From positions 1-50,378 of IMG/VR virus record IMGVR_UViG_2562617057_000009: a DNA stretch of 50,378 nt; one strand, 5' to 3'. This document shows, in pieces, positions 9,485 through 28,099 of this stretch (positions within the stretch are counted from its first letter, which is position 1; each line of letters begins with the position of its first letter). The notes under the pieces are model-generated. The model saw only the letters and a list, made by a program, of their open reading frames with translations, was not told the origin of the DNA and did no database searches. The DNA is from a virus (Duplodnaviria > Heunggongvirae > Uroviricota > Caudoviricetes). Position numbers and translations under genes: made by a program.

Positions 9485-10309
9485 GTGAAAAACAATATCA
9501 AAGTTTTCGATTTTAAATCAAGCACTGGTGAATTGTTGTCATCAGTTCGTAGTGTGGTCATTGATTCAACACCATGGTTTTTTGCCGTGGATATATGTAA
9601 CGCGCTGGGGCTGACAAATACTGCTATCTCCCTTCAGTCCATCGATGATGAAGATAAAACCGAATATAAGGATTACTTAGGTTCGGGACGTAAGCCTTTG
9701 CTGGTCAATGAATCCGGGCTCTATGCGCTGATTATCAAAAGTCGAAAAAAACAGGCAAGACGTTTTAAACGGTGGATTACATCGGAGGTAATTCCCTCAA
9801 TTCGTAAAACGGGGAATTACTGTCTTACCACAATGGCATCCCTACCAGATTTTAGCGATCCGGCTGCTGCTGCCCGTGCCTGGGCGGACGAATATGAGGC
9901 TAAAAACAGAGCAATTAGTTACGTTCATCGTCAGGCCCAATACATCGAACATCTGGAAAATTTATTCCAGCCTGGCATGACACCGGTTCAGTTCTGCAAG
10001 CAACTTAATGGAGTAAATGTTCAGCGCATCACAGCATTTCTGGAGGCTCACAACTGGCTTTATGACGAGCGTCCTGAATCGCGAAGCCCCGCATGGCGTG
10101 TAAAGGCATATGCCCGAGATCTGTATCTGACCGAACGTCACCACTATATCGATTCAGGTTATGAAGAAGGGTTTTATTCGTACACACCAGTTCTTCTCCA
10201 GAAAGGGGCGGTCTGGATTTATCGCCAGTATCTTAGAGGTGCATTACCCATGAAGAGAAACTGGAATGGCGAATTTACTCACGATAAAGAACTGGCGGGT
10301 GCTGCATGA
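9485..10309 (+). CDS. Bro-N / KilAC-type antirepressor
   Basis: Bro-N-like N-terminus (WFFAVDICNALGLTN) and antirepressor-like C-terminal half; GTG start after GGAGA. Confidence 0.7.
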   Translation: MKNNIKVFDFKSSTGELLSSVRSVVIDSTPWFFAVDICNALGLTNTAISLQSIDDEDKTEYKDYLGSGRKPLLVNESGLYALIIKSRKKQARRFKRWITSEVIPSIRKTGNYCLTTMASLPDFSDPAAAARAWADEYEAKNRAISYVHRQAQYIEHLENLFQPGMTPVQFCKQLNGVNVQRITAFLEAHNWLYDERPESRSPAWRVKAYARDLYLTERHHYIDSGYEEGFYSYTPVLLQKGAVWIYRQYLRGALPMKRNWNGEFTHDKELAGAA

Positions 10310-10965
10310 TTGTTCTCCAAGATATTGATTCTGCAATTTCGGGACGTTACACTGTCTCTGCCCCTTATAAAGCGGGGGCCGGGATTGGAACCCCGGAATT
10401 GATCGAGGCGATATACGACGCGCCAGCGTCTTTTTTATCGTCCGCGCTCACGCACGCCAGAATTATGGTGGGCTGGGCAGGGGAGCCGAAAGGCTCGCCG
10501 GTTTCCTTGATCGCCGGTAGTTCCAACCCTGTTCAGTCCGCCACCAGCGAGCTTGGAACCTCCGGTGGTGGAAGTTTTTCACCGATCAAGGAGGCTGCCA
10601 TCATGGCTACGATCCCAGTTTCCCCATTCCTCAAAATCGAAGTCGTCAACGGCAAGGCCGTTATTTTCTCTTTGCATGTAGCCTGCCATTTCAAGCGCAT
10701 GCACCAGAACATCGTCGACAAAATCGAGTATCTGAACTGCTCGCGCGAATTTTTTACCCGCAATTTCATACCGGGTACTTACCACATCTATGACGACTCT
10801 CTGCGTGGTTATTACATCACCCTTGATGGTCTGATGCTGCTTCAGCTTGGGTTAAGTCTGCGCACAATGCGGTACTACGAGAGTTGCATTGAAGCGTTCC
10901 ATGAGGCTGAAACCGTCCAGGTGCATTCCGCTTTCCGTCGTCATCAACGGGAGGTGCACCTATGA
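10306..10965 (+). CDS. module 1: Rha-like domain protein; the 5' ~300 nt of the ORF is a structured leader (alternative start ATG 10603 after AAGGAGG gives a 120-aa protein)
   Basis: C-terminal 120 aa are Rha-like; ORF start overlaps the upstream stop (ATGA). Confidence 0.55.
   Translation: MIVLQDIDSAISGRYTVSAPYKAGAGIGTPELIEAIYDAPASFLSSALTHARIMVGWAGEPKGSPVSLIAGSSNPVQSATSELGTSGGGSFSPIKEAAIMATIPVSPFLKIEVVNGKAVIFSLHVACHFKRMHQNIVDKIEYLNCSREFFTRNFIPGTYHIYDDSLRGYYITLDGLMLLQLGLSLRTMRYYESCIEAFHEAETVQVHSAFRRHQREVHL
10356..10602 (+). ncRNA. candidate c4/ImmI-like antisense regulatory element, copy 1
   Basis: Hairpin gcccc/ggggc (10360-10379), hairpin plus U-tract 10417-10436, GAAA-tetraloop hairpin 10480-10499, loop CCTTGATCG complementary to the SD region CGATCAAGG (10583-10591), GTTCCAA complementary to TTGGAAC at 10385 and 10553. 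Confidence 0.5.
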
Positions 10966-11621
10966 TCCGCTACCTGAATATTGATTCTGCAATTTCGGGA
11001 CGTTACACTGTCTCCGCACCTTATAAAGCGGGTGCCGGGATTTGCACCCCGGAATTGTCAACGGCGATATACGACGCGCCAGCGTCTTTTTTATCGTCCG
11101 CGCTCACGCACGCCAGAATTATGGTGGGCTGGGCAGGGGAGCCGAAAGGCTCGCCGGTCTCCGTTGACGCCGGTAGTGCAAACCCTGTTCAGTCCGCCAC
11201 CAGCGAGATTTGCACCTCCGGTGGTGGAAGTTTTCCACAGTCAACGGAGGCTGCCATCATGGCTACAGTCCCAACCCACTCATTCCTCAAAATTGAGACC
11301 GTCAACGGCAAGGCCGTTATTTTCTCTTTGCATGTGGCCTGCCACTTTAAGCGCATGCACCAGAACATCGTCGACAAAATCGAGTATCTGAACTGCTCGC
11401 GCGAATTTTTTACCCGCAATTTCATACCGGGTACTTACCACATCTATGACGACTCTCTGCGTGGTTATTACATCACCCTTGATGGTCTGATGCTGCTTCA
11501 GCTTGGGTTAAGTCTGCGCACAATGCGGTACTACGAGAGTTGCATTGAAGCGTTCCATGAGGCTGAAACCGTCCAGGTGCATTCCGCTTTCCGTCGTCAT
11601 CAACGGGAGGTGCACCTATGA
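10962..11621 (+). CDS. module 2: Rha-like domain protein (alternative start ATG 11259)
   Basis: Paralog of module 1; GGGAGGTG precedes the ATG, which overlaps the upstream stop. Confidence 0.55.
   Translation: MIRYLNIDSAISGRYTVSAPYKAGAGICTPELSTAIYDAPASFLSSALTHARIMVGWAGEPKGSPVSVDAGSANPVQSATSEICTSGGGSFPQSTEAAIMATVPTHSFLKIETVNGKAVIFSLHVACHFKRMHQNIVDKIEYLNCSREFFTRNFIPGTYHIYDDSLRGYYITLDGLMLLQLGLSLRTMRYYESCIEAFHEAETVQVHSAFRRHQREVHL
11012..11258 (+). ncRNA. candidate c4/ImmI-like antisense regulatory element, copy 2 (different specificity)
   Basis: Same architecture with compensatory changes: gcacc/ggtgc, TTTGCAC/GTGCAAA, CCGTTGACG versus GTCAACGG at the SD. Confidence 0.5.
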
Positions 11622-12478
11622 TCCGCTACCTGAATATTGATTCTGCAATTCCGGGACGTTACACTGTCTCTGCACCTTATAAAGCGGGTGCCGGGATTGG
11701 CGTCCTGAAATTCAATATAGAGCATAACCGCGCTCATGCGGTTTTTTCGTGTCATGAGCATTGCTACGCCCAAATTATGGTGGGGCGTGCAGGGGCATCG
11801 CAAGATGCGCCGGGTTCTATGTTGACCGGTTACGCCAACCCTGTACGTCTCACCACCTCTGTGATTGGCGTCCCATGTGGTGAGTTCTTTGAATTCAACA
11901 TAGGGGCTGTCACCATGACTACTCTCCCAACCCTCTCTCAACCTGAAATTGCCATCGTTGATGGTCAGGCTGTTACTTCATCCCTGGCTGTTGCCAACTT
12001 CTTCTCTAAACGTCATGACGATGTTCTGAAAAAGATCCGCATTTTGGATTGTTCTCCAGAGTTTTGTGCCCGCAATTTTGCGGAGACATCAATTTTGGTA
12101 CGCCAGCCCAACGGCGGTACTCGCAAACTTCCCTGCTACCAAATCACCCGCGACGGCTTCGCCTTCCTTGCTATGGGCTTCACTGGTAAACGTGCCGCCC
12201 GGTTCAAAGAGGCATACATCAATGCCTTTAACCAGATGGAGAGGAGCTTATCAGGAGCTGGTGCGGCTGACATGTCATCTGTCGCACAAAACGCCAGAGG
12301 CGTATACCTGCATTTGCGTGAAATCCATCAAATCTGGACAAGCCAGCTTTACCCAATGCTTAAGGCCGTTGAATCTCCGCTGGCTGGCAAACTGTACGAC
12401 CGTGTAGGTGATGCTGTTTTTGGTGCTGCACTTGTTGATTCCAGGCTGAATGGTTCTGACAAGGAGGTGCGCCCATGA
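11618..12478 (+). CDS. module 3: full Rha-family regulatory protein (alternative start ATG 11915)
   Basis: Rha-like motif (VTSSLAVANFFSKRHDDVLKKIR); diverged leader of the same design. Confidence 0.6.
   Translation: MIRYLNIDSAIPGRYTVSAPYKAGAGIGVLKFNIEHNRAHAVFSCHEHCYAQIMVGRAGASQDAPGSMLTGYANPVRLTTSVIGVPCGEFFEFNIGAVTMTTLPTLSQPEIAIVDGQAVTSSLAVANFFSKRHDDVLKKIRILDCSPEFCARNFAETSILVRQPNGGTRKLPCYQITRDGFAFLAMGFTGKRAARFKEAYINAFNQMERSLSGAGAADMSSVAQNARGVYLHLREIHQIWTSQLYPMLKAVESPLAGKLYDRVGDAVFGAALVDSRLNGSDKEVRP
11667..11914 (+). ncRNA. candidate c4/ImmI-like antisense regulatory element, copy 3 (third specificity)
   Basis: Terminator-like hairpin aaccgc/gcggtt plus U-run at 11726-11749, GCAA-tetraloop hairpin, TTGGCGT/ACGCCAA pairing, loop CTATGTTGA complementary to TCAACATAG next to the SD. 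Confidence 0.45.
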
Positions 12479-16225: not shown

Positions 16226-16429
16226 TTGATGAGCGTCAAAATTCAAACGATACCGGAACTGCTTATCCAGACACGAGGTAATATGACCGAAGTTTCACGA
16301 ATGCTGAACTGTAATCGCGCCACGGTAAGAAAATATGCTGAAGATAAAGAGGGCAAAGGGCACGCCATTGTTGATGGTGTTCTGATTGTTCATCGTGGAT
16401 GGGACAGGGGTAAAGACAGTGATGCGTGA
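16226..16429 (+). CDS. ninH: NinH-like protein
   Basis: Pattern TIPELL...[34 protein letters not shown] matches lambda NinH as recalled. Confidence 0.65.
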
Positions 16430-16802
16430 TATTCAGCAGGTTCTTGAGCGCTGGGGCGCGTGGGTGGCTAATAATCATGAGGATGTGACCTGGTCGTCCA
16501 TTGCTGCCGGTTTTAAGGGATTAATCCCTTCAAAAGTAAAATCCCGCCCGCAATGCTGTGACGATGACGCGATGGTTATATGTGGGTGTATGGCCCGCCT
16601 TAACCGGAACAACAACGATCTACATGACTTGCTGGTTGACTACTACGTGTTTGGGATGACATTCATGACGCTGGCGCGGAAGCATGGATGCTCAGATGGT
16701 TATATAGGAAAGAAGCTACAAAAAGCCGAGGGGGTGGTGGAAGGAATGTTGATGATGTTGGGTGTCCGGTTAGAAATGGACAAATATATTGAACATCCCT
16801 GA
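16422..16802 (+). CDS. Q: late-gene antiterminator Q (933W/phage-21 type)
   Basis: [23 protein letters not shown]-terminus matches the recalled Stx-phage Q family; position before tRNAs and lysis genes. Confidence 0.7.
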
Positions 16803-17001: not shown

Positions 17002-17078
17002 GGCCCTTTAGCTCAGTTGGTCAGAGCGAGCGACTCATAATCGCCAGGTCGCTGGTTCAAGTCCAGCAAGGGCCACCA
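17002..17078 (+). tRNA. ileZ: tRNA-Ile2-like (anticodon CAU, ileX/ileZ type)
   Basis: Cloverleaf with anticodon loop CTCATAA and 3' CCA; close to E. coli ileX as recalled. Confidence 0.75.
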
Positions 17079-17079
17079 A

Positions 17080-17156
17080 CCACCACTAGCTCATCCGGAT
17101 AGAGCATCAACCTTCTAAGTTGACGGTGCGAGGTTCGAGTCCTCGGTGGTGGGCCA
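17080..17156 (+). tRNA. argN: tRNA-Arg (anticodon UCU)
   Basis: Perfect 7-bp acceptor stem ccaccac/gtggtgg, anticodon loop CTTCTAA, CCA end. Confidence 0.75.
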
Positions 17157-17158
17157 GC

Positions 17159-17234
<76 letters not shown>

Positions 17235-17237
17235 TAT

Positions 17238-17312
<75 letters not shown>

Positions 17313-17604: not shown

Positions 17605-17802
17605 ATGAAATCCATGGACAAAATTTCAACGGGCATTGCCTACGGCACCTCCGCCGGCAGTGCCGGCTACTGGTTTTTGCAGTGGTTGGATCAGGTCAGT
17701 CCATCACAGTGGGCTGCGATTGGTGTGCTGGGAAGTCTGCTTCTGGGGCTTCTGACTTATCTGACGAATCTGTATTTCAAAATTAAGAGAAGACAAGCGT
17801 AA
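17605..17802 (+). CDS. S: pinholin (phage 21 S21-type) with dual-start motif MKSM
   Basis: N-terminus [44 protein letters not shown] matches recalled S21; two transmembrane segments. Confidence 0.8.
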
Positions 17803-17824: not shown

Positions 17825-18454
17825 ATGAAGCATGAAGAAATGAATCAGCGATTCAATCACCTGGAAAATGAAATCACTGAGCTTAATAAAAAATTGTCGG
17901 CGTTGGTGAGTTCTGAAGATGAAAACAAACGCCGCGATGAGCATTATGCGGCGATTTACGATTACTGCCACAAAGTCGCTCACGAGACTTTTATGAAGTT
18001 TTTGCAGGAAAAGTTTTTACCGGCCGCATTGTCAGAAAAAGAGGCGGCTTACCTGCGGCCTGAGTACGTCATTACGGTTAACAGTGCCGGAGAGGAAGAG
18101 CATAAAAGTGATTTTATTGCGTCTGCACCGGATAAAGACCAGGAACCCCGTCGGCCTTTCAGGGTTTCCTGTGAAGAGGGTGAGTTCGTCGTTTATGAGA
18201 ACGGAAAACCTGTCCGGGCATCGCATCATCACTGCCTGAAAATTATTAATCTCGCTATCAGATGCCTGAAAGACGAAAACACCAGAGTTATGAAACGCAT
18301 TGGCCGTTGCATGGGGTATTTGCAGGTGGCGGCAGAGATTGAAGCACTTGCCAGTGGTGCAGACATGGATGCTGCGGTGCGGGAGGCTCTTCTTCGTGAT
18401 TTCAATACTCCCCCTTTAAGAAAGAGCCTGATGACTGGATCCAGCCGGGGCTGA
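17825..18454 (+). CDS. hypothetical 209-aa protein inserted between holin and endolysin
   Basis: Acidic, coiled-coil-like N-terminus; no lysis-protein features. Confidence 0.55.
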   Translation: MKHEEMNQRFNHLENEITELNKKLSALVSSEDENKRRDEHYAAIYDYCHKVAHETFMKFLQEKFLPAALSEKEAAYLRPEYVITVNSAGEEEHKSDFIASAPDKDQEPRRPFRVSCEEGEFVVYENGKPVRASHHHCLKIINLAIRCLKDENTRVMKRIGRCMGYLQVAAEIEALASGADMDAAVREALLRDFNTPPLRKSLMTGSSRG

Positions 18455-18519: not shown

Positions 18520-19053
18520 ATGAGCGCAAAAATCAAATACGGCCTGTCGGCTGCTGTTCTGGCGCTGATTGCCGCAGGCGCGTCTGCTCCCCAGATACTT
18601 GACCAGTTTCTGAACGAAAAAGAGGGTAATCACACAACGGCATACCGTGATGGTTCTGGCATATGGACCATCTGTCGTGGTGCCACAATGGTGGATGGTA
18701 AGCCTGTCATACCGGGAATGAAGCTGTCGAAGGAAAAATGTGACCAGGTTAACGCTATTGAACGTGATAAGGCGCTGGCATGGGTGGAGCGCAATATTAA
18801 AGTACCTCTGACCGAACCACAGAAAGCGGGTATAGCGTCATTTTGTCCCTATAACATTGGCCCCGGTAAGTGTTTTCCGTCGACGTTTTATAAGCGGCTG
18901 AATGCTGGTGATCGTAAAGGTGCATGCGAGGCGATTCGCTGGTGGATAAAAGATGTTGGGCGCGATTGCCGCATACGTTCAAATAACTGCTATGGACAGG
19001 TTATTCGTCGTGACCAGGAAAGCGCATTAGCCTGTTGGGGGATAGATCAATGA
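18520..19053 (+). CDS. R: SAR endolysin (T4-type lysozyme with N-terminal signal-arrest-release domain)
   Basis: Gly/Ala-rich N-terminal membrane segment followed by catalytic E-x8-D-x5-T ([16 protein letters not shown]). Confidence 0.85.
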
Positions 19054-19517
19054 GCAGAGTCACCGCGATTATCTCCGCTCTGGTTATCTGCATCATCGTC
19101 TGCCTGTCATGGGCTGTTAATCATTACCGTGATAACGCCATTACCTACAAAGAGCAGCGCGACAAAAACGCAAGAGAACTGAAGCTGGCGAACGCAACCA
19201 TTACTGACATGCAGCAGCGCCAGCGTTCTGCTGATGCACTCGATGCTAAATACACGAAGGAGTTAGCTGATGCGAAAGCTGAAAATGATGCTCTTCGGCG
19301 CAAGCTTGATAATGGTGGTCGGGTGCTCGTCAAAGGAAAATGCCCTGTGCCATCCTCAGCCGAAACCTCCAGCGCCTCCGGCATGGGCAATGATGCCAGC
19401 GTCGAACTCTCTCCAGTTGCTGGACGAAACGTTCTCGGTATCAGAGACGGAATCATCAGAGACCAGACAGCACTGAGAACGCTTCAGGAATACATCAGAA
19501 CGCAGTGTCTGAATTAA
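19050..19517 (+). CDS. Rz: Rz-like i-spanin
   Basis: N-terminal transmembrane segment then coiled-coil; immediately after the endolysin. Confidence 0.75.
19270..19476 (+). CDS. Rz1: Rz1-like o-spanin lipoprotein embedded in the +1 frame of Rz
   Basis: Lipobox VVGCSS, proline-rich, wholly inside Rz in another frame. Confidence 0.6.
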
Positions 19518-19657
19518 CGGAGCTGGAATGAATGCTGTTTACCTGTTGCGGAAATAAAGATTGCATATTGCGACAATTTGTTGCATGTTTAAGGTGCGCT
19601 TTTCCAGAGCGTATGCGTACGCACCGCATGAAGTACAACCACAGAGAGGCAACCATA

Positions 19658-19888
19658 ATGGCAACAAGCATCCGTTTAGACGATGATTTCGTCAGTGACG
19701 TAAAGGTTCACGCTGATGCCGCAAGTCGCAGCATACCAAAACAAATTGAGCACTGGGCTAAGATTGGTCGTATAGCTGAAGATAATCCAGATCTGCCATT
19801 CAGTTTTATTAGCGAAGTTCTGCTGTCACAAAGCGAAATCAGACACAACAAGGTAACGCGTTATGTCAGAAGAACAGACAGGTCGTGA
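19658..19888 (+). CDS. type II antitoxin (ParD-like)
   Basis: 76-aa ORF after AGAGAGG; overlaps the start of the downstream RelE/ParE-like gene. Confidence 0.55.
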   Translation: MATSIRLDDDFVSDVKVHADAASRSIPKQIEHWAKIGRIAEDNPDLPFSFISEVLLSQSEIRHNKVTRYVRRTDRS

Positions 19889-20192
19889 AATTGATGTTTA
19901 TCAGAGTCGGCGTTTCGAAAAGTCTCTGAGTAAACTCCCGGAAGCGCAACTGAAAGTTGTGGAAGATGAGATCGACAGAATAATTGACAATCCTCTGTTG
20001 GGAACGCAAAAGAAAGGAGACCTCAGTTTTCTTCGTGTGCATAAATTTCAGCTGAATAATCAACAGGTGCTTCTGGGTTACAGCTGGCTTGACGATAAAC
20101 TTGAGCTCTACCTCCTTAGCATCGGTCCACATGAAAATTTTTATACCGATCAGAAAAAACACCGAAAAGCTGATTTAAAACTCATCGGTTAG
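19863..20192 (+). CDS. RelE/ParE-family toxin
   Basis: 109-aa basic protein in a two-gene overlapping arrangement typical of type II TA pairs. Confidence 0.55.
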   Translation: MSEEQTGREIDVYQSRRFEKSLSKLPEAQLKVVEDEIDRIIDNPLLGTQKKGDLSFLRVHKFQLNNQQVLLGYSWLDDKLELYLLSIGPHENFYTDQKKHRKADLKLIG

Positions 20193-20211
20193 TCCTGACG
20201 TCATGCATACC

Positions 20212-20237
20212 AGCCCACGTAAACGCGTGGGCTTTTT
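20212..20237 (+). terminator. intrinsic terminator after the TA pair
   Basis: 8-bp stem agcccacg/cgtgggct followed by TTTTT. Confidence 0.65.
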
Positions 20238-20448
20238 CATATCTGAATTTCACCGCGCACCGCAGCGCATGATAACCACCGAACCTGCCCCTTTGGAATG
20301 AGCCTTTGAGGATACCAGTTAGTGCTGGCGAGCCTCGGTGGGCTGGTTTCCTGTGCGGCAAAGGTTCATTTCAAAGAACAGGTATACGACATGAAATCAT
20401 TAACCTGAGGTGTACTGGCAATAGCGGACACTACCATTTGTTCTTTTT

Positions 20449-21267
20449 TTAAGCAGCCATCTGATGATATTTTTCCCTGAAGGCTGCCGGGGAGATATTC
20501 CCCAGACGAGAGTGACGACGCTGACGATTGTAGAAAATCTCAATGTATTCCCGTATTACTGAGATGGCTTCATCCCGGTTATTAAAACGATAGTGGCTCA
20601 GGCTCTCATTTTTCAGCGTTCCCCAGAAGCTTTCCATCGGAGCGTTGTCGTAACAGTTACCTTTACGCGACATTGATGTTTTCAGACCAAACTGCTCCTG
20701 TATGACCCGGTAATCGTATGCGCAGTACTGTGAACCTCGATCAGAGTGGTGGATTAGCCCGGCAGGTGGGCGCTGGCTCCTGAGCGCCATAAACAGGGCT
20801 TTACCTGTCAGCTCTTTTGTCATGCGCTCTCCCATGGCGTAGCCGACAATTTCGCACGTATAAACATCTTTGATGCCAGCGAGGTACAACCATCCCTCCT
20901 GTGTGGCAACATACGTCAGGTCCGCCACCCAGACCTGATTTGGTGCTGTAGGAGCGAACGTCTGGTTCAGCAGATTTGGCGCAACTGGCAGATTGTGGTT
21001 CGAGTTCGTAGTCGCTCTGAACTTGCGTTTCTGCTTACAGCGTAGCCTTAGCTCCTTACGAAGACGTGCCAGTCGGTCACGACCAACGATGATGCCATTC
21101 TCTGCCAGCTCCGTCTGGAGCCGCCGGGTTCCATATGTTTCGCGAGTGCGGATATGTGCCACCTTAATCTCCAGTTTTAGCCGCTCATCACTTTGTTTTC
21201 TGTCTGAGGGTTCATGCTGTACCCAGTTGTAATAACCGCTCCTGGATACACCAAATACCTGACACAT
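20449..21267 (-). CDS. IS3-family transposase OrfB (DDE catalytic domain)
   Basis: DDE-type integrase-core motifs; located after orfA with overlap expected for frameshifted OrfAB. Confidence 0.75.
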   Translation of the reverse strand: MCQVFGVSRSGYYNWVQHEPSDRKQSDERLKLEIKVAHIRTRETYGTRRLQTELAENGIIVGRDRLARLRKELRLRCKQKRKFRATTNSNHNLPVAPNLLNQTFAPTAPNQVWVADLTYVATQEGWLYLAGIKDVYTCEIVGYAMGERMTKELTGKALFMALRSQRPPAGLIHHSDRGSQYCAYDYRVIQEQFGLKTSMSRKGNCYDNAPMESFWGTLKNESLSHYRFNNRDEAISVIREYIEIFYNRQRRHSRLGNISPAAFREKYHQMAA

Positions 21268-21302: not shown

Positions 21303-21605
21303 TTAACGCGTATTTTTCAGCGACTCCTGTGCAAAATACGCTGTTGCTTTTTTTAATATATCTCGCTCAAGGCGAGCTTCATTTAACGCCTTACGCAGTT
21401 GCAGAATTTCAGATTCCAGTTCAGCCACCGTGCGGGAACCAGGAGTACCGAGCCCTTTTCTGGCGGCGGTAACCCATTGTCCTAAAGTGCCTTCAGGAAG
21501 GGATAATCGGGAAGCGCCTTCACTGATCGAAAGTTGATTTTCAAGAACCGTTCTGACAGCTTCGGCTTTGAACTCTTTAGAGTAACGTTGGGTTTTTCTG
21601 CTCAT
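21303..21605 (-). CDS. IS3-family transposase OrfA
   Basis: 100-aa HTH protein typical of IS3-family OrfA. Confidence 0.75.
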   Translation of the reverse strand: MSRKTQRYSKEFKAEAVRTVLENQLSISEGASRLSLPEGTLGQWVTAARKGLGTPGSRTVAELESEILQLRKALNEARLERDILKKATAYFAQESLKNTR

Positions 21606-22151
21606 TATTAGCTCCTTCTGATGCCATTCTATTTCAGGAAGGAGTGTCCGTTAAACTCAGGCTACCTCAACCCTCTTCAATCAGCCAATCCGTATCGGTG
21701 AAGATGGCATGATCTGCCTCACTGATATGTGGAAAGCCAGTGGTAAAAGTGAATCTGAATCTCCGTACCACTACCTGCGAAACAAGCAGACCAAAGAGTT
21801 CTTAGCCGAGCTGGAGAAAAACCACGAATCTGTGGTTTTTACTGAGCGCGGTGTACACGGTGGAACATATGGCGGGAAGTTTGTTGCTTATGATTATGCA
21901 GCATGGCTAAACCCCGGATTTAAATATGCAGCCTATAAAGTCCTGGATGACTACTTCACCGGAGAACTTCAGCATCGCAACAGCTTAAGTGCGCAGCTCA
22001 ATATGAAGTGTCATGAGTTTGATCAGAAAAAAGATATGGCGAGCTTCTGTGGACAAGGGCTGGCGGCATGGCGCTATACGAAGCCAGTGTTGGTCGCTGA
22101 GATTAACTCCCTGGCTAACCAGCTGCAGATAACGATCCCCGGGCTTCCGGG

Positions 22152-22409
22152 ATGAGTGATCGTGTCATTGAATGCGCCTCCAGAGCGGGGCGCGACTTCT
22201 CAGAGTTCATGAAAGGCGAGAAGGGCATGATGGAAGCATTGGCCTCGGTGGATGAGTTTGGCGAGCAGCTGCGCCTCAACGGCTGTGTCAATCATCACTT
22301 TGTTAGCTACATGATGCGGAACTCGATCATGCAGGCATTCATGGACATGGCAAAAGCCGAGAGGAAAGAAGAGCGCCGGCGTAAGCGAGCGGAAGCAAAA
22401 GCGAAGTAG
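22152..22409 (+). CDS. hypothetical protein
   Basis: 85-aa ORF overlapping the KilA-N stop. Confidence 0.45.
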   Translation: MSDRVIECASRAGRDFSEFMKGEKGMMEALASVDEFGEQLRLNGCVNHHFVSYMMRNSIMQAFMDMAKAERKEERRRKRAEAKAK

Positions 22410-23058: not shown

Positions 23059-23568
23059 GTGGCTACTCAGACTGAAGTTGCCAGGCATTTGAGTCTGACC
23101 GATCGCCAGCTTCGCAGATTACAGAAACTGCCGGGTGCCCCGGTTTCGAACAAGCGAGGACAACTGGATCTGGATGCCTGGCGTGATTTTTACATATCGT
23201 ATCTGAGAAGAAGTAAAAACGATGTGCCTGATGGTGATCCGGAAGAGGATTATGAAGAGAAACTACTCATTGCGAGATGGGAACTGACCGCAGAACAGGC
23301 TGTCGCACAGCAGTTAAAAAATCAGGTGTCAAAAGGAAATCTTATTGATAGCGGATTTTGTATTTTTGCCCTTAGTAAGCTGGCGATGGCTTTATCCAGT
23401 ACGCTTGACTCCATTCCTTTGTCCATGCAACGACAGTTCCCGGATTTAACGCCGCGTCATATTGATCATCTGAAAATCCTTATTGCTAAGGGAGCGAATC
23501 AGTGCGCGCGTGCGGGGGATAAATTACCGGATTTACTCGATGAATATATCAGAACAACAACTGAGTAA
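23059..23568 (+). CDS. nu1: terminase small subunit (lambda Nu1-like)
   Basis: C-terminal region aligns with recalled lambda Nu1 (FCIFALSKLA...LPLSMQRQFPDL...HIDHLK); GTG start. Confidence 0.8.
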   Translation: MATQTEVARHLSLTDRQLRRLQKLPGAPVSNKRGQLDLDAWRDFYISYLRRSKNDVPDGDPEEDYEEKLLIARWELTAEQAVAQQLKNQVSKGNLIDSGFCIFALSKLAMALSSTLDSIPLSMQRQFPDLTPRHIDHLKILIAKGANQCARAGDKLPDLLDEYIRTTTE

Positions 23569-24900
23569 TATGATGGTGGCAGTCACTATCGCACTGCAGC
23601 CACTGGTCAGGGTATTGCCGGTGACGGCTGTAGAATGGGCCGATCAAAATTATTACCTGCCTAAAGAATCGTCATACGGTGAGGGGGAATGGAAAACGCT
23701 GCCGTTTCAGGTCGCCATCATGAACTGCATGGGCAATGACGAGATTCGTACAGTTAACCTGATTAAATCTGCCCGTGTTGGTTATACAAAGATGTTGCTG
23801 GGGGTGGTCGGGTATTTTATTGAGCATAAATCCCGCAACAGCCTGCTTTTTCAGCCCACTGACTCGGCTGCTGAAGATTTTATGAAGTCTCACGTGGAGT
23901 CGACGATCCGGGACGTACCCTGTCTGAAAGCCCTTTCTCCATGGCTGGGACGTAAACATCGTGACAATACCCTCACACTGAAACGCTTTTCCTCCGGCGT
24001 GGGATTCTGGTGTCTGGGCGGTGCAGCTGCCAAAAACTACCGTGAAAAATCTGTGGATGTGGTCTGCTATGACGAACTCTCCTCGTTTGAACCGGATGTG
24101 GAAAAAGAAGGTTCGCCGACGCTGCTTGGCGATAAACGTATCGAAGGTTCGGTATGGCCTAAATCCATACGCGGCTCAACGCCAAAAATTAAAGGCTCCT
24201 GTCAGATTGAAAAAGCTGCGAATGAATCTGCGCATTTCATGCGGTTTTATGTCCCTTGCCCTCATTGCGGGGAGGAGCAGTATCTGAAGTTTGGCGATGA
24301 TGCGACGTCGTTTGGCCTGAAATGGGAGAAGGGTAAACCGGAAACGGTGTATTACCTGTGTGAACATAATGGCTGCGTGATCCGTCAGTCTGAACTTGAT
24401 CAGACCGGGGGGCGCTGGATTTGTGACAATACCGGGATGTGGACGCGTGACGGCCTGACATTTTACAGCGTCGGTGATGAGGAGATACCCCCGCCACGTT
24501 CTGTCACTTTCCACATCTGGACGGCGTACAGCCCGTTCACTACCTGGGCGCAGATTGTTTATGACTGGCTGGATGCACTGAAGGATCCTAACGGCGTCAA
24601 GACGTTTGTAAACACCACACTGGGGGAGACCTGGGAAGAGGCCGTGGGCGAAAAACTCGATCACCAGGTGCTGATGGATAAGGTTGTGCATTACCCGGCG
24701 GCGGTGCCTGTCCGGGTGGTTTACCTGACTGCTGGTATTGACTCGCAGCGAAACCGTTTTGAGATGTATGTCTGGGGATGGGCTCCGGGAGAGGAAGCCT
24801 TTCTGGTGGATAAAATCATCATTATGGGACGACCTGATGAGGAAGAGACGCTGTTACGTGTGGATGCGGCGATCAACAAAAAATACCGCCATGCAGACGG
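23540..24900 (+). pseudogene. A: terminase large subunit (lambda gpA-like), 3'-truncated by IS1
   Basis: Collinear with recalled lambda A for ~450 aa (TAVEWADQNYYLPKES...); reading frame runs into the IS1 left end at 24901. Confidence 0.8.
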
Positions 24901-24955
24901 GGTGATGCTGCCAACTTACTGATTTAGTGTATGATGGTGTTTTTGAGGTGCTCCA

Positions 24956-25231
24956 GTGGCTTCTGTTTCTATCAGCTGTCCCTCCTGTTCAGCTACTGAC
25001 GGGGTGGTGCGTAACGGCAAAAGCACCGCCGGACATCAGCGCTATCTCTGCTCTCACTGCCGTAAAACATGGCAACTGCAGTTCACTTACACCGCTTCTC
25101 AACCCGGTACGCACCAGAAAATCATTGATATGGCCATGAATGGCGTTGGATGCCGGGCAACTGCCCGCATTATGGGCGTTGGCCTCAACACGATTTTACG
25201 TCACTTAAAAAACTCAGGCCGCAGTCGGTAA
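24956..25231 (+). CDS. insA: IS1 InsA
   Basis: 91-aa protein matching recalled InsA. Confidence 0.9.
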
Positions 25232-25653
25232 CCTCGCGCATACAGCCGGGCAGTGACGTCATCGTCTGCGCGGAAATGGACGAACAGTGGGGCTATGTCG
25301 GGGCTAAATCGCGCCAGCGCTGGCTGTTTTACGCGTATGACAGTCTCCGGAAGACGGTTGTTGCGCACGTATTCGGTGAACGCACTATGGCGACGCTGGG
25401 GCGTCTTATGAGCCTGCTGTCACCCTTTGACGTGGTGATATGGATGACGGATGGCTGGCCGCTGTATGAATCCCGCCTGAAGGGAAAGCTGCACGTAATC
25501 AGCAAGCGATATACGCAGCGAATTGAGCGGCATAACCTGAATCTGAGGCAGCACCTGGCACGGCTGGGACGGAAGTCGCTGTCGTTCTCAAAATCGGTGG
25601 AGCTGCATGACAAAGTCATCGGGCATTATCTGAACATAAAACACTATCAATAA
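25150..25653 (+). CDS. insB: IS1 InsB reading frame
   Basis: 167-aa ORF matching recalled InsB. Confidence 0.85.
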
Positions 25654-26620: not shown

Positions 26621-26683
26621 TTAGCCAGGTAACACAGTGTTATGACAGCCCGCTGGTTCAGGCGGGCTTTTTGTGGGGTGAAT

Positions 26684-28099
26684 ATGGCAGTAAAGATTTC
26701 AGGTGTACTGAAAGATGGGGCGGGTAAACCTGTCGTAAATTGTGCGATTGAACTGCGGGCCAGAAGAACCAGTCCGACCGTTGTGGCACACGTTGTTGCC
26801 ACTTGCGTGACGGACAATAACGGTGCTTATGTGATTGAGGCTGAGCCGGGGTATTACGAGGTTGCGCTTCACTGTAACGGCTGGCAGCCAACCCGTGTCG
26901 GGGATATTGATGTGGCACCGACTGATGCACCGGGGACACTGAACGCGTTTCTGAATGCACCAAAGGATGGTGATTTACGTCCGGAGGTGATGAAGCGCTT
27001 TGAGGAAATGGTGGCGCAGGCGCAGCAGAGTGCCGGGGCTGCAGCCGGAAACGCACAGCAGACGGCGCAGGATGTGGCGCCAGCCGCAACGGCCCGTGAT
27101 GATGCACAACGTTTTGCGGAGAATGCCAGACAGGATGCAGTTGCCACTGCAGAGGACAGAAAGGCCACTGCGGAAGACGTGAAAAGCACGGGGAAAAACG
27201 CCGTCTTATCCGGTCAGCGTGCACAGGCAGCCGCAGGTTATGCCCGCGCAGCAGAACAGGCCAAAAATGACATTGATGCTGCGCTGACCGGCACTCTGAA
27301 AACGGCTAACCATCTGTCTGAAATCGCAGCAGCAGGCGAAAAGGCACAACAGAAGTCCCGGGATAATCTGGGGCTGAAAAGTGCGGCCACGATGGAAGCA
27401 CAGAGCGACATTTACGACCGGACAAAAGGCCGTCTGGCGATACCCGGCGCATTCGGCTTTGGGTGTGCTTTTCTGCCTGAAGATGTTATCCGTTTTGACA
27501 CTAAGAGTGATTTCCTGGCCTGGGTAAGGAATGCGCTGCCAGGTGAATATTCCGTTGCTGGCCCCTACGACATCATCATACCCGACACACGGTTTGAAGG
27601 GGTGCTCAGCATCCGGTGGACTGATGCACGCCCTGAGACAACAGAACCGCGGTACAGAGCCAAATCCCTTACTTTTTACGGCATTAACGGCCCCATTTAT
27701 CACACCCGCTACTGCTACTGGCCCATATCCAGACTGACTGGCTGGGTGAAAATAAATATAACCACAGAAGATATTATTTACAGAATCGTGGCGAGCTCTG
27801 TCTGCAACAGATGGGGAGACCCTGACATTGGCGGGCTGATTATTGCTGCGTACCAGGGAGAAGCTGACGGTGATAAAGTCATCAGACTTGTCAGGGGGCA
27901 GTCATACAGAGGCTCACGACTGGGACCGGTGGGGATTTCAGTGCCCAGTACTCCCACCGGAACGTATATAGCATCCCCACAATTTTTCATTACGGGATGT
28001 TCAGAGCATTCATTACCGGGGTCATATTGCGCCCTGTCCGGGGTGCCGGATGCACATGTCTCTGGCGCAATGCCCGGGCTTTTTATTCGCACATCGTGA
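26684..28099 (+). CDS. stf: side tail fiber protein (Stf-like)
   Basis: N-terminus MAVKISGVLKDGAGKPV matches recalled lambda Stf; Ala/Gln-rich shaft. Confidence 0.75.
   Translation: MAVKISGVLKDGAGKPVVNCAIELRARRTSPTVVAHVVATCVTDNNGAYVIEAEPGYYEVALHCNGWQPTRVGDIDVAPTDAPGTLNAFLNAPKDGDLRPEVMKRFEEMVAQAQQSAGAAAGNAQQTAQDVAPAATARDDAQRFAENARQDAVATAEDRKATAEDVKSTGKNAVLSGQRAQAAAGYARAAEQAKNDIDAALTGTLKTANHLSEIAAAGEKAQQKSRDNLGLKSAATMEAQSDIYDRTKGRLAIPGAFGFGCAFLPEDVIRFDTKSDFLAWVRNALPGEYSVAGPYDIIIPDTRFEGVLSIRWTDARPETTEPRYRAKSLTFYGINGPIYHTRYCYWPISRLTGWVKINITTEDIIYRIVASSVCNRWGDPDIGGLIIAAYQGEADGDKVIRLVRGQSYRGSRLGPVGISVPSTPTGTYIASPQFFITGCSEHSLPGSYCALSGVPDAHVSGAMPGLFIRTS

Follow-up and report, generated by a model that had tools for sequence, protein, structure and literature searches.

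A pair of small overlapping genes at positions 19658-20192 of the virus record IMGVR_UViG_2562617057_000009 (Caudoviricetes; the whole stretch of 50,378 nucleotides (nt) was analysed and is called the window) is read here as the core of a self-contained type II toxin-antitoxin cassette of ~0.8 kb. The reading as a whole, to which we assign a probability of about three in four, is that the cassette is a moron located between Rz and kilA-N of a defective lambdoid prophage, that it is autoregulated, and that its toxin is most likely a ribonuclease acting on mRNA (mRNase). Both genes already carry names in public annotation, the RefSeq entries for identical copies being 'ParD-like family protein' and 'type II toxin-antitoxin system RelE/ParE family toxin'. 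Our result is mostly confirmatory and places a rare accessory cassette at the lysis-terminase junction of a prophage remnant of the enteroinvasive Escherichia coli/Shigella type; it also defines the cassette boundaries, a likely operator and the terminator. The cassette comprises the following features:

19511-19657, plus strand: regulatory region and left end of the cassette, in the interval between the Rz stop and the antitoxin start
19561-19566, plus strand: -35-like hexamer TTGCAT
19570-19584, no strand assigned: operator candidate, inverted repeat GCGACAATTTGTTGC
19584-19589, plus strand: -10-like hexamer CATGTT
19613-19629, plus strand: leader inverted repeat ATGCG-tacgcac-CGCAT, a hairpin in the 5' untranslated region or a second operator
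19658-19888, plus strand: antitoxin gene, 76 amino acids, ATG start; PF11903, with a predicted ribbon-helix-helix N-terminal domain followed by a C-terminal helix and tail
19863-20192, plus strand: toxin gene, 109 amino acids; PF15781 (ParE-like_toxin), RelE/ParE fold
20212-20238, plus strand: intrinsic-terminator-like hairpin AGCCCACGTAAACGCGTGGGCT (20212-20233) followed by TTTTT
20239-20306, plus strand: right edge of the cassette

The gene pair and the probable target of its toxin

A preliminary description of this DNA had proposed two overlapping small genes in type II layout, similar to ParD and RelE, and had called for a homology search. Both open reading frames (ORFs) were confirmed; they lie in the same orientation and share 26 nt in different reading frames. 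A Shine-Dalgarno sequence, GAGAGG (19644-19649), stands ahead of the antitoxin ATG, and AAGG precedes the toxin ORF. The homology search bears out the proposed kinship: the antitoxin matches Pfam ParD_like (PF11903) with 69.3 bits (E 2.7e-19; residues 3-60 on profile positions 2-59 of 73) and the toxin matches ParE-like_toxin (PF15781) with 113.9 bits (residues 12-98 on positions 1-87 of 87). Both proteins thus belong to these families, with scores far over the curated gathering cut-offs of 23 and 28 bits, respectively. PHROGs categorizes the toxin as 'RelE-like toxin, moron', NCBIfam holds no model for either protein of the pair, and a literature search on DUF3423 or on the RefSeq accessions of the pair returned nothing.

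The pair is widespread and is kept together. Homologues form 569 toxin and 272 antitoxin clusters in Enterobacterales, Vibrionaceae, Shewanella, Aeromonas and others, and a scan with one genome per species found carriers in 342 species, on plasmids, on chromosomes and in prophages. The overlapping two-gene layout is retained in 78 of 80 loci of other species, where the antitoxin gene ends ~20-26 nt inside the toxin gene; in the remaining two loci contig ends interrupt the pair. The genes are therefore adjacent, small and co-oriented, antitoxin first, overlapping and conserved as a pair, as is characteristic of a type II system. Since the Pfam scores lie far over the cut-offs and the paired layout recurs, this is not a chance pair of ORFs. 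Pairwise ratios of non-synonymous to synonymous substitution rates (dN/dS) against E. coli and Salmonella copies are ~0.02-0.13 for both genes, and about 0.07-0.09 for the antitoxin gene alone, indicating strong purifying selection and thus two real, constrained genes. A longer ORF, 19532-19888 (118 amino acids), was rejected as the antitoxin because the homologues all begin with MATSIRL and have 75-80 amino acids; the RefSeq annotation is likewise 231 bp long.

In the AlphaFold2 model of the antitoxin (predicted local distance difference test score (pLDDT) of 87) an extended N-terminus is followed by helices at residues 9-21, 26-42 and 48-62, i.e. a strand-helix-helix layout plus a C-terminal helix. 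Almost all Foldseek matches are ribbon-helix-helix proteins (CdbA, Arc, CopG, AmrZ, FitA, AtaR and the antitoxin of the Shewanella prophage ParE/CopA pair). The modelled fold is consistent with a ribbon-helix-helix antitoxin, short of proof.

In the AlphaFold2 model of the toxin (pLDDT 76) the elements follow the order strand-helix-helix-three-strand-helix known from RelE/ParE toxins, that is the beta-alpha-alpha unit, three-stranded antiparallel sheet and C-terminal helix of the RelE/ParE (BECR-fold) superfamily. The preliminary description had named a lack of RelE/ParE fold similarity as part of what would speak against it; model and Foldseek search instead reveal this fold. HigB2, RelE1 and E. 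coli RelE rank at the top of the matches and ParE proteins follow below (E 0.017-0.08, template modelling (TM) score 0.44-0.49). The modelled fold establishes membership of the RelE/ParE superfamily without deciding between an mRNase and a gyrase poison.

Evidence on the target comes from the family profile, which was built from 83 relatives with 31-60% identity. In the PDB it matches only E. coli RelE (E 0.0016) and the Helicobacter pylori HP0892-type toxin, and no ParE chain even at E 10; single-sequence PDB searches with the proteins of the pair gave only noise. Likewise, the toxin has no match to PF05016 at E up to 10. By both marks of a canonical ParE, a PF05016 match or similarity to a characterised ParE, the toxin falls outside that family. 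The catalytic residues of RelE are K52, K54, R61, R81 and Y87, located on strand beta-2 and in the C-terminal helix, and the corresponding sets of YafQ and YoeB are His-based. In the profile alignment the invariant K61 of the toxin falls on RelE K52, and the conserved H90 falls on RelE R81 and on the G-S-H motif of HP0892. The G-x-H at the start of the C-terminal helix is similar to that of YafQ and HP0892. The family-conserved residues, K50, D53, K61, Y73, G88 and H90-E91-N92-F93-Y94, form a plausible active site.

A published phylogeny nests PF15781 in the RelE mRNase subcluster, apart from the subcluster of gyrase inhibitors (Gerdes 2025, PMC11980606). Because of this placement, of the conserved residue set and of a profile that matches RelE and HP0892 but not ParE, we lean towards a ribosome-dependent mRNase of the RelE/YafQ type, which may use K61, H90 and Y94/F93; this assignment is moderately favoured and stands ahead of a gyrase poison. 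That the toxin is a true ParE which poisons gyrase, as its Pfam name and its ParD-like partner would have it, with the module acting in classical post-segregational killing, appears unlikely. ParE proteins do occur among its fold matches, but RNase toxins come first, and neither the family profile nor the PF05016 search recovers a ParE. The strictly conserved K...H-E-N-F-Y set resembles a catalytic site, and the phylogenetic position within the mRNases points in the same direction. The ParD-like partner is not diagnostic of a ParE, since antitoxins of PF11903 are found with toxins other than ParE as well, the PezT-like Rv0366c being one example. The Pfam label 'ParE-like' is probably misleading as to the target.

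Compared to known systems, the pair shares with RelBE and the related mRNase toxins YafQ, YoeB, HigB2 and HP0892/HP0894 an antitoxin-first overlapping operon, a (here predicted) ribbon-helix-helix antitoxin and the RelE fold, and with E. coli RelE the profile-aligned positions K61/K52 and H90/R81. It differs from RelE-type toxins in that identity in structural alignments is just 10-23% and the window toxin lacks PF05016; RelE has neither the conserved H-E-N-F-Y motif of the window toxin nor its basic C-terminal tail (residues 95-109), and the antitoxin is of the PF11903 and not of the RelB type. The relBE operon of E. coli K-12 also offers a parallel in location: it resides in the cryptic lambdoid prophage Qin, and residence in a lambdoid remnant is common to both. 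From the ParDE systems, i.e. RK2 ParDE, PaaR2-PaaA2-ParE2 of E. coli O157:H7 prophages and ParE_SO/CopA_SO of the Shewanella prophage CP4So (PDB 7etr), the window family is set apart by the absence of a sequence match to any solved ParE and by its phylogenetic grouping with mRNases; moreover, PaaR2-PaaA2-ParE2 consists of three genes and the window system of two.

Two further observations concern the toxin. The basic C-terminal tail (residues 95-109, 20145-20189) is conserved in the close subfamily (K98, R101, K102, D104, L105 and K106), and distant PF15781 members stop shortly past FYRDLK, without this tail. The BoxA/Nus-regulated 'ParE-like toxin' CKO_00699 of Citrobacter koseri (PMC5725501) was considered and set aside: it is read directly off its leader, with R82 as a catalytic residue, and the toxin of the window has Leu at position 82 and is encoded by a second gene.

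Cassette boundaries, operator candidate and terminator

To the left, with positions 18900-19700 as the query, homology to Rz ends at query position 605-611 in more than 5000 E. coli genomes, which corresponds to a boundary at 19504-19510; only pair-carrying genomes extend further. To the right, BLAST homology to the empty-site prophage of the related E. coli S19-141, in which Rz is joined straight to kilA-N, restarts at ~20307. The two boundaries delimit a cassette of ~0.8 kb (~19511-20306) that reaches from the promoter candidate to the terminator. Its G+C content of 42-44% is ~6-8 points lower than that of the flanks (48-52%). Morons have been described as additions with deviating G+C content and with a promoter and terminator of their own, toxin-antitoxin pairs being among their cargo (PMC3594210). 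The pair had been called a moron in the preliminary description, and this view holds: relative to the related S19-141 prophage the cassette is extra DNA at a junction of gene modules. We conclude that the pair is accessory cargo, a moron, and a mobile toxin-antitoxin cassette that is also found outside phages. With known phage morons such as HK97 gene 15 and lambda bor/lom (PMC3594210) it has in common the variable presence in related phages, the module junction, the deviating G+C content and, as far as the sequence tells, promoter-like and terminator elements of its own; it differs from them in being a mobile toxin-antitoxin cassette that lives outside phages too.

The distribution of the pair illustrates this mobility. 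It is present in 10 of 5426 complete E. coli genomes, chromosomal in all, and follows Rz in E. coli prophages of three different backbones: that of CFSAN029787 has a lambda-like head module and that of JNEC-KY171 an N4-gp56-type capsid module, while strain A34 has a third type. Both ORFs are 100% identical in seven other genomes, one of the prophages there being apparently complete. Salmonella prophages carry the pair at the same site, with Rz on one side and antirepressor and Nu1 genes on the other, and in Vibrio cholerae it lies within an unrelated prophage. In Serratia and Proteus it stands alone among chromosomal housekeeping genes at non-phage sites, and homologues were found on 73 plasmids.

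Its relation to lysis cassettes varies in detail. In Salmonella prophages with the pair after Rz (L084, L086 and L087; ~1300-2500), hicA/hicB are also found just downstream of Q, so that two toxin-antitoxin modules flank the lysis cassette. In four loci, from Yersinia, Xenorhabdus and Arsenophonus, lysozyme and Rz come after the pair instead of before it as in E. coli and Salmonella. Its link to lysis cassettes is thus recurrent, and the side on which it lies is variable.

For the regulatory region, 78 loci were aligned over the 160 nt that precede the antitoxin start. An inverted repeat with at most two arm mismatches (family consensus GCGACA-N3-TGTCGC) occurs in 52 of these upstream regions compared to 23 of 1198 control windows; GCGACAATTTGTTGC is the sole exact match to the GCGACANNNTGTYGC pattern within the window. 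The repeat sits in a 17-nt spacer of fixed length between TTGCAT and CATAnT hexamers. Among 49 unique contexts from many genera, the TTG of the -35-like element is fixed 9 nt ahead of the operator candidate in 36, and A2 and T6 of the -10-like element, which reads CATGTT in the window and CATATT, CATAAT or CATACT in relatives, are present in 39. The repeat GCGACA-N3-TGTYGC accompanies the pair across genera and in unrelated genomic settings. As repeat and hexamers follow the pair through these surroundings, we read them as the cassette's own promoter and operator: a conserved repeat between two hexamers suggests an autoregulated promoter with a candidate operator.

The leader between this element and the antitoxin gene contains a further inverted repeat (ATGCG...CGCAT), and repeats of other sequence occur at the same place in other lineages (ATGTGA...TCACAT, TTGCGTAG...CTACGCAA and TACGTCA...TGACGTA, for example, among five loci from different genera). 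Leader repeats of at least 5 bp are found in 52% of unique leaders and in 21% of shuffles. No structural conservation is claimed on this basis, as the excess over shuffles is modest and the leaders are related by descent. Elsewhere, short tandem repeats with units of 6-8 nt fill the region upstream of the antitoxin gene (~100 nt upstream in four loci from several species). The unit is GCTATC in Yersinia similis, where the repeats stand between the operator and the antitoxin gene; a Vibrio has CAAACAGA, a Photobacterium AAGACT and an Aeromonas a unit resembling CGACGAAC. Such repeats could allow variable expression.

At the other end, the terminator hairpin begins 19 nt past the toxin stop; its stem has 9 pairs, of which 6 are G-C, with a 4-nt loop and a TTTTT tail. 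Folded as RNA it has an energy of -16.1 kcal/mol (z = -3.1 compared to shuffles), and in 50 of 84 loci the toxin stop is followed within 110 nt by a similar hairpin and T-run. The pair follows Rz (19035-19517) with its embedded Rz1-like ORF and ends at a terminator-like hairpin (20212-20238), in line with the order of genes and the terminator noted from the sequence beforehand.

Proposed mechanism and benefit

In the proposed mechanism, the antitoxin would act as a ribbon-helix-helix dimer that binds GCGACA-N3-TGTYGC and represses its own weak sigma-70 promoter, while its C-terminal helix and tail would neutralise the toxin. In the lysogen, transcription would start at the cassette's promoter and stop at its terminator. 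During lytic growth, Q-antiterminated late transcription would be expected to read the pair as well, given that the pair shares the orientation of the late operon, which lies downstream of Q, and given established lambdoid biology. Should the supply of antitoxin fail, either through loss of the region or through an infecting phage that shuts off host transcription, the freed toxin would arrest growth. The benefit is probably retention of the prophage region, abortive infection, or both.

Several results weigh against this overall reading. A consensus scan recovers no sigma-70 site on the plus strand, either in the window or in two relatives, and each of the window hexamers agrees with the consensus at 3 of 6 positions; the scan being negative, the promoter claim is based solely on conservation across genera. 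Every fold match of the antitoxin has E > 0.6 and is not significant. The confidence of the toxin model is moderate (pLDDT 76), with close homologues as its basis, and the profile match to RelE is marginal (E 0.0016). PF15781 is an experimentally undescribed family (Gerdes 2025, PMC11980606), with no experiment known for any of its members. Neither at the DNA nor at the protein level did 50,697 deposited phage genomes yield a homologue, the only matches being short ones to the terminator stretch, so that carriage by active phages is undocumented. Finally, neither protein matches the defence models of PADLOC-DB 2.0 at E up to 0.1.

The last result bears on the question whether the main role of the pair is not prophage retention but anti-phage defence of the lysogen, by abortive infection or superinfection exclusion. 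A site beside the lysis genes is a classical one for lambdoid cargo, the Salmonella prophages with the pair have hicAB after Q, toxin-antitoxin and exclusion genes are among the known prophage morons (PMC3594210), and a promoter candidate together with a terminator would suit expression in the lysogen. We nevertheless consider defence as the main role doubtful, as PADLOC models are unmatched, the family has no experimental precedent and the same cassette occurs in plain chromosomal and plasmid settings. Its intact state in a prophage without morphogenesis genes is equally well accounted for by simple addiction or selfish persistence. A more far-reaching combination would make PF15781/PF11903 an experimentally untouched branch of the RelE superfamily, with a ribosome-dependent mRNase that uses a His-based K61/H90-E91-N92-F93-Y94 site and an abortive-infection module in E. 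coli and Salmonella lambdoid prophages that is triggered by phage shut-off of host transcription. We regard this as a long shot; if true, the Rz-to-terminase junction would be a hot spot for toxin-antitoxin and defence cargo.

As for the wider interest, the family is widespread yet without experimental study, and characterising these 0.8 kb would provide annotation for thousands of genes. An intact cassette in a decaying prophage is also a handy case for the question of retention versus defence.

The surrounding prophage and its decay

The cassette lies inside a lambdoid late operon and in the same orientation, with kilA-N, split by the insertion sequence IS600, next downstream. The neighbouring features are:

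16386-16802: Q antiterminator, upstream of the pair
17002-17312: four tRNA genes between Q and holin, Met(CAT), Arg(TCT), Thr(TGT) and Gly(TCC) according to ARAGORN
17605-17802: P21-type holin (Pfam)
17825-18454: ORF of unknown function, 209 amino acids, between holin and lysozyme
18520-19053: phage lysozyme (Pfam)
19035-19517: Rz (Pfam)
19270-19476: Rz1-like ORF embedded in Rz, with a lipobox-like VVGC and a proline-rich segment
20406-21669: IS600 (IS3 family, 1264 bp), with orfA at 21303-21605 and orfB at 20449-21267, minus strand
25150-25653: IS1, after the cut terminase gene
26642-28099: tail-fibre gene, after IS1

IS600 is flanked by a 3-bp target duplication, ACC (20403-20405 and 21670-21672). 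According to the comparison with CFSAN029787 and the annotation of IS600, it breaks kilA-N near codon 5 and leaves an ORF at 21709-22155. The insertion lies 213 nt past the toxin stop, and cassette and terminator are untouched. Further downstream, the large terminase gene (23483-24922) breaks off at residue 479, inside the nuclease domain, and is followed by IS1 and the tail-fibre gene. With the head genes and the greater part of the tail genes lost by deletion, the prophage is defective. The terminase/IS1 deletion junction, without IS600, is also present in E. coli O121 strain 201805972 and in strain VL7S7. The persistence of an intact cassette in such surroundings fits addiction-type retention, but does not prove it.

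This decay, with IS600 in kilA-N and the IS1-linked deletion, might also fit an inert remnant that is neither toxic nor expressed in this strain, and the -10-like CATGTT of the window is weaker than the CATATT or CATAAT of relatives. However, neither ORF is disrupted, seven other genomes have 100% identical copies of both, every family-conserved residue is retained, and dN/dS is 0.02-0.13, making an inert pair highly improbable.

Three further observations concern the prophage itself. The first of the four tRNA genes is annotated as tRNA-Ile by RefSeq in an identical prophage, and its CAT anticodon is probably lysidine-modified. The ORF at 17825-18454 has no match in Pfam, NCBIfam or PADLOC, and its PHROG matches are to groups of unknown function only (phrog_1085); it is possibly a further cargo gene within the lysis cassette. 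Positions 10306-12478 hold three tandem paralogues with Ash and Rha domains in a 656-nt period, the copies being 89% and 66% identical over 300 nt, and CFSAN029787 has a single copy at this place.
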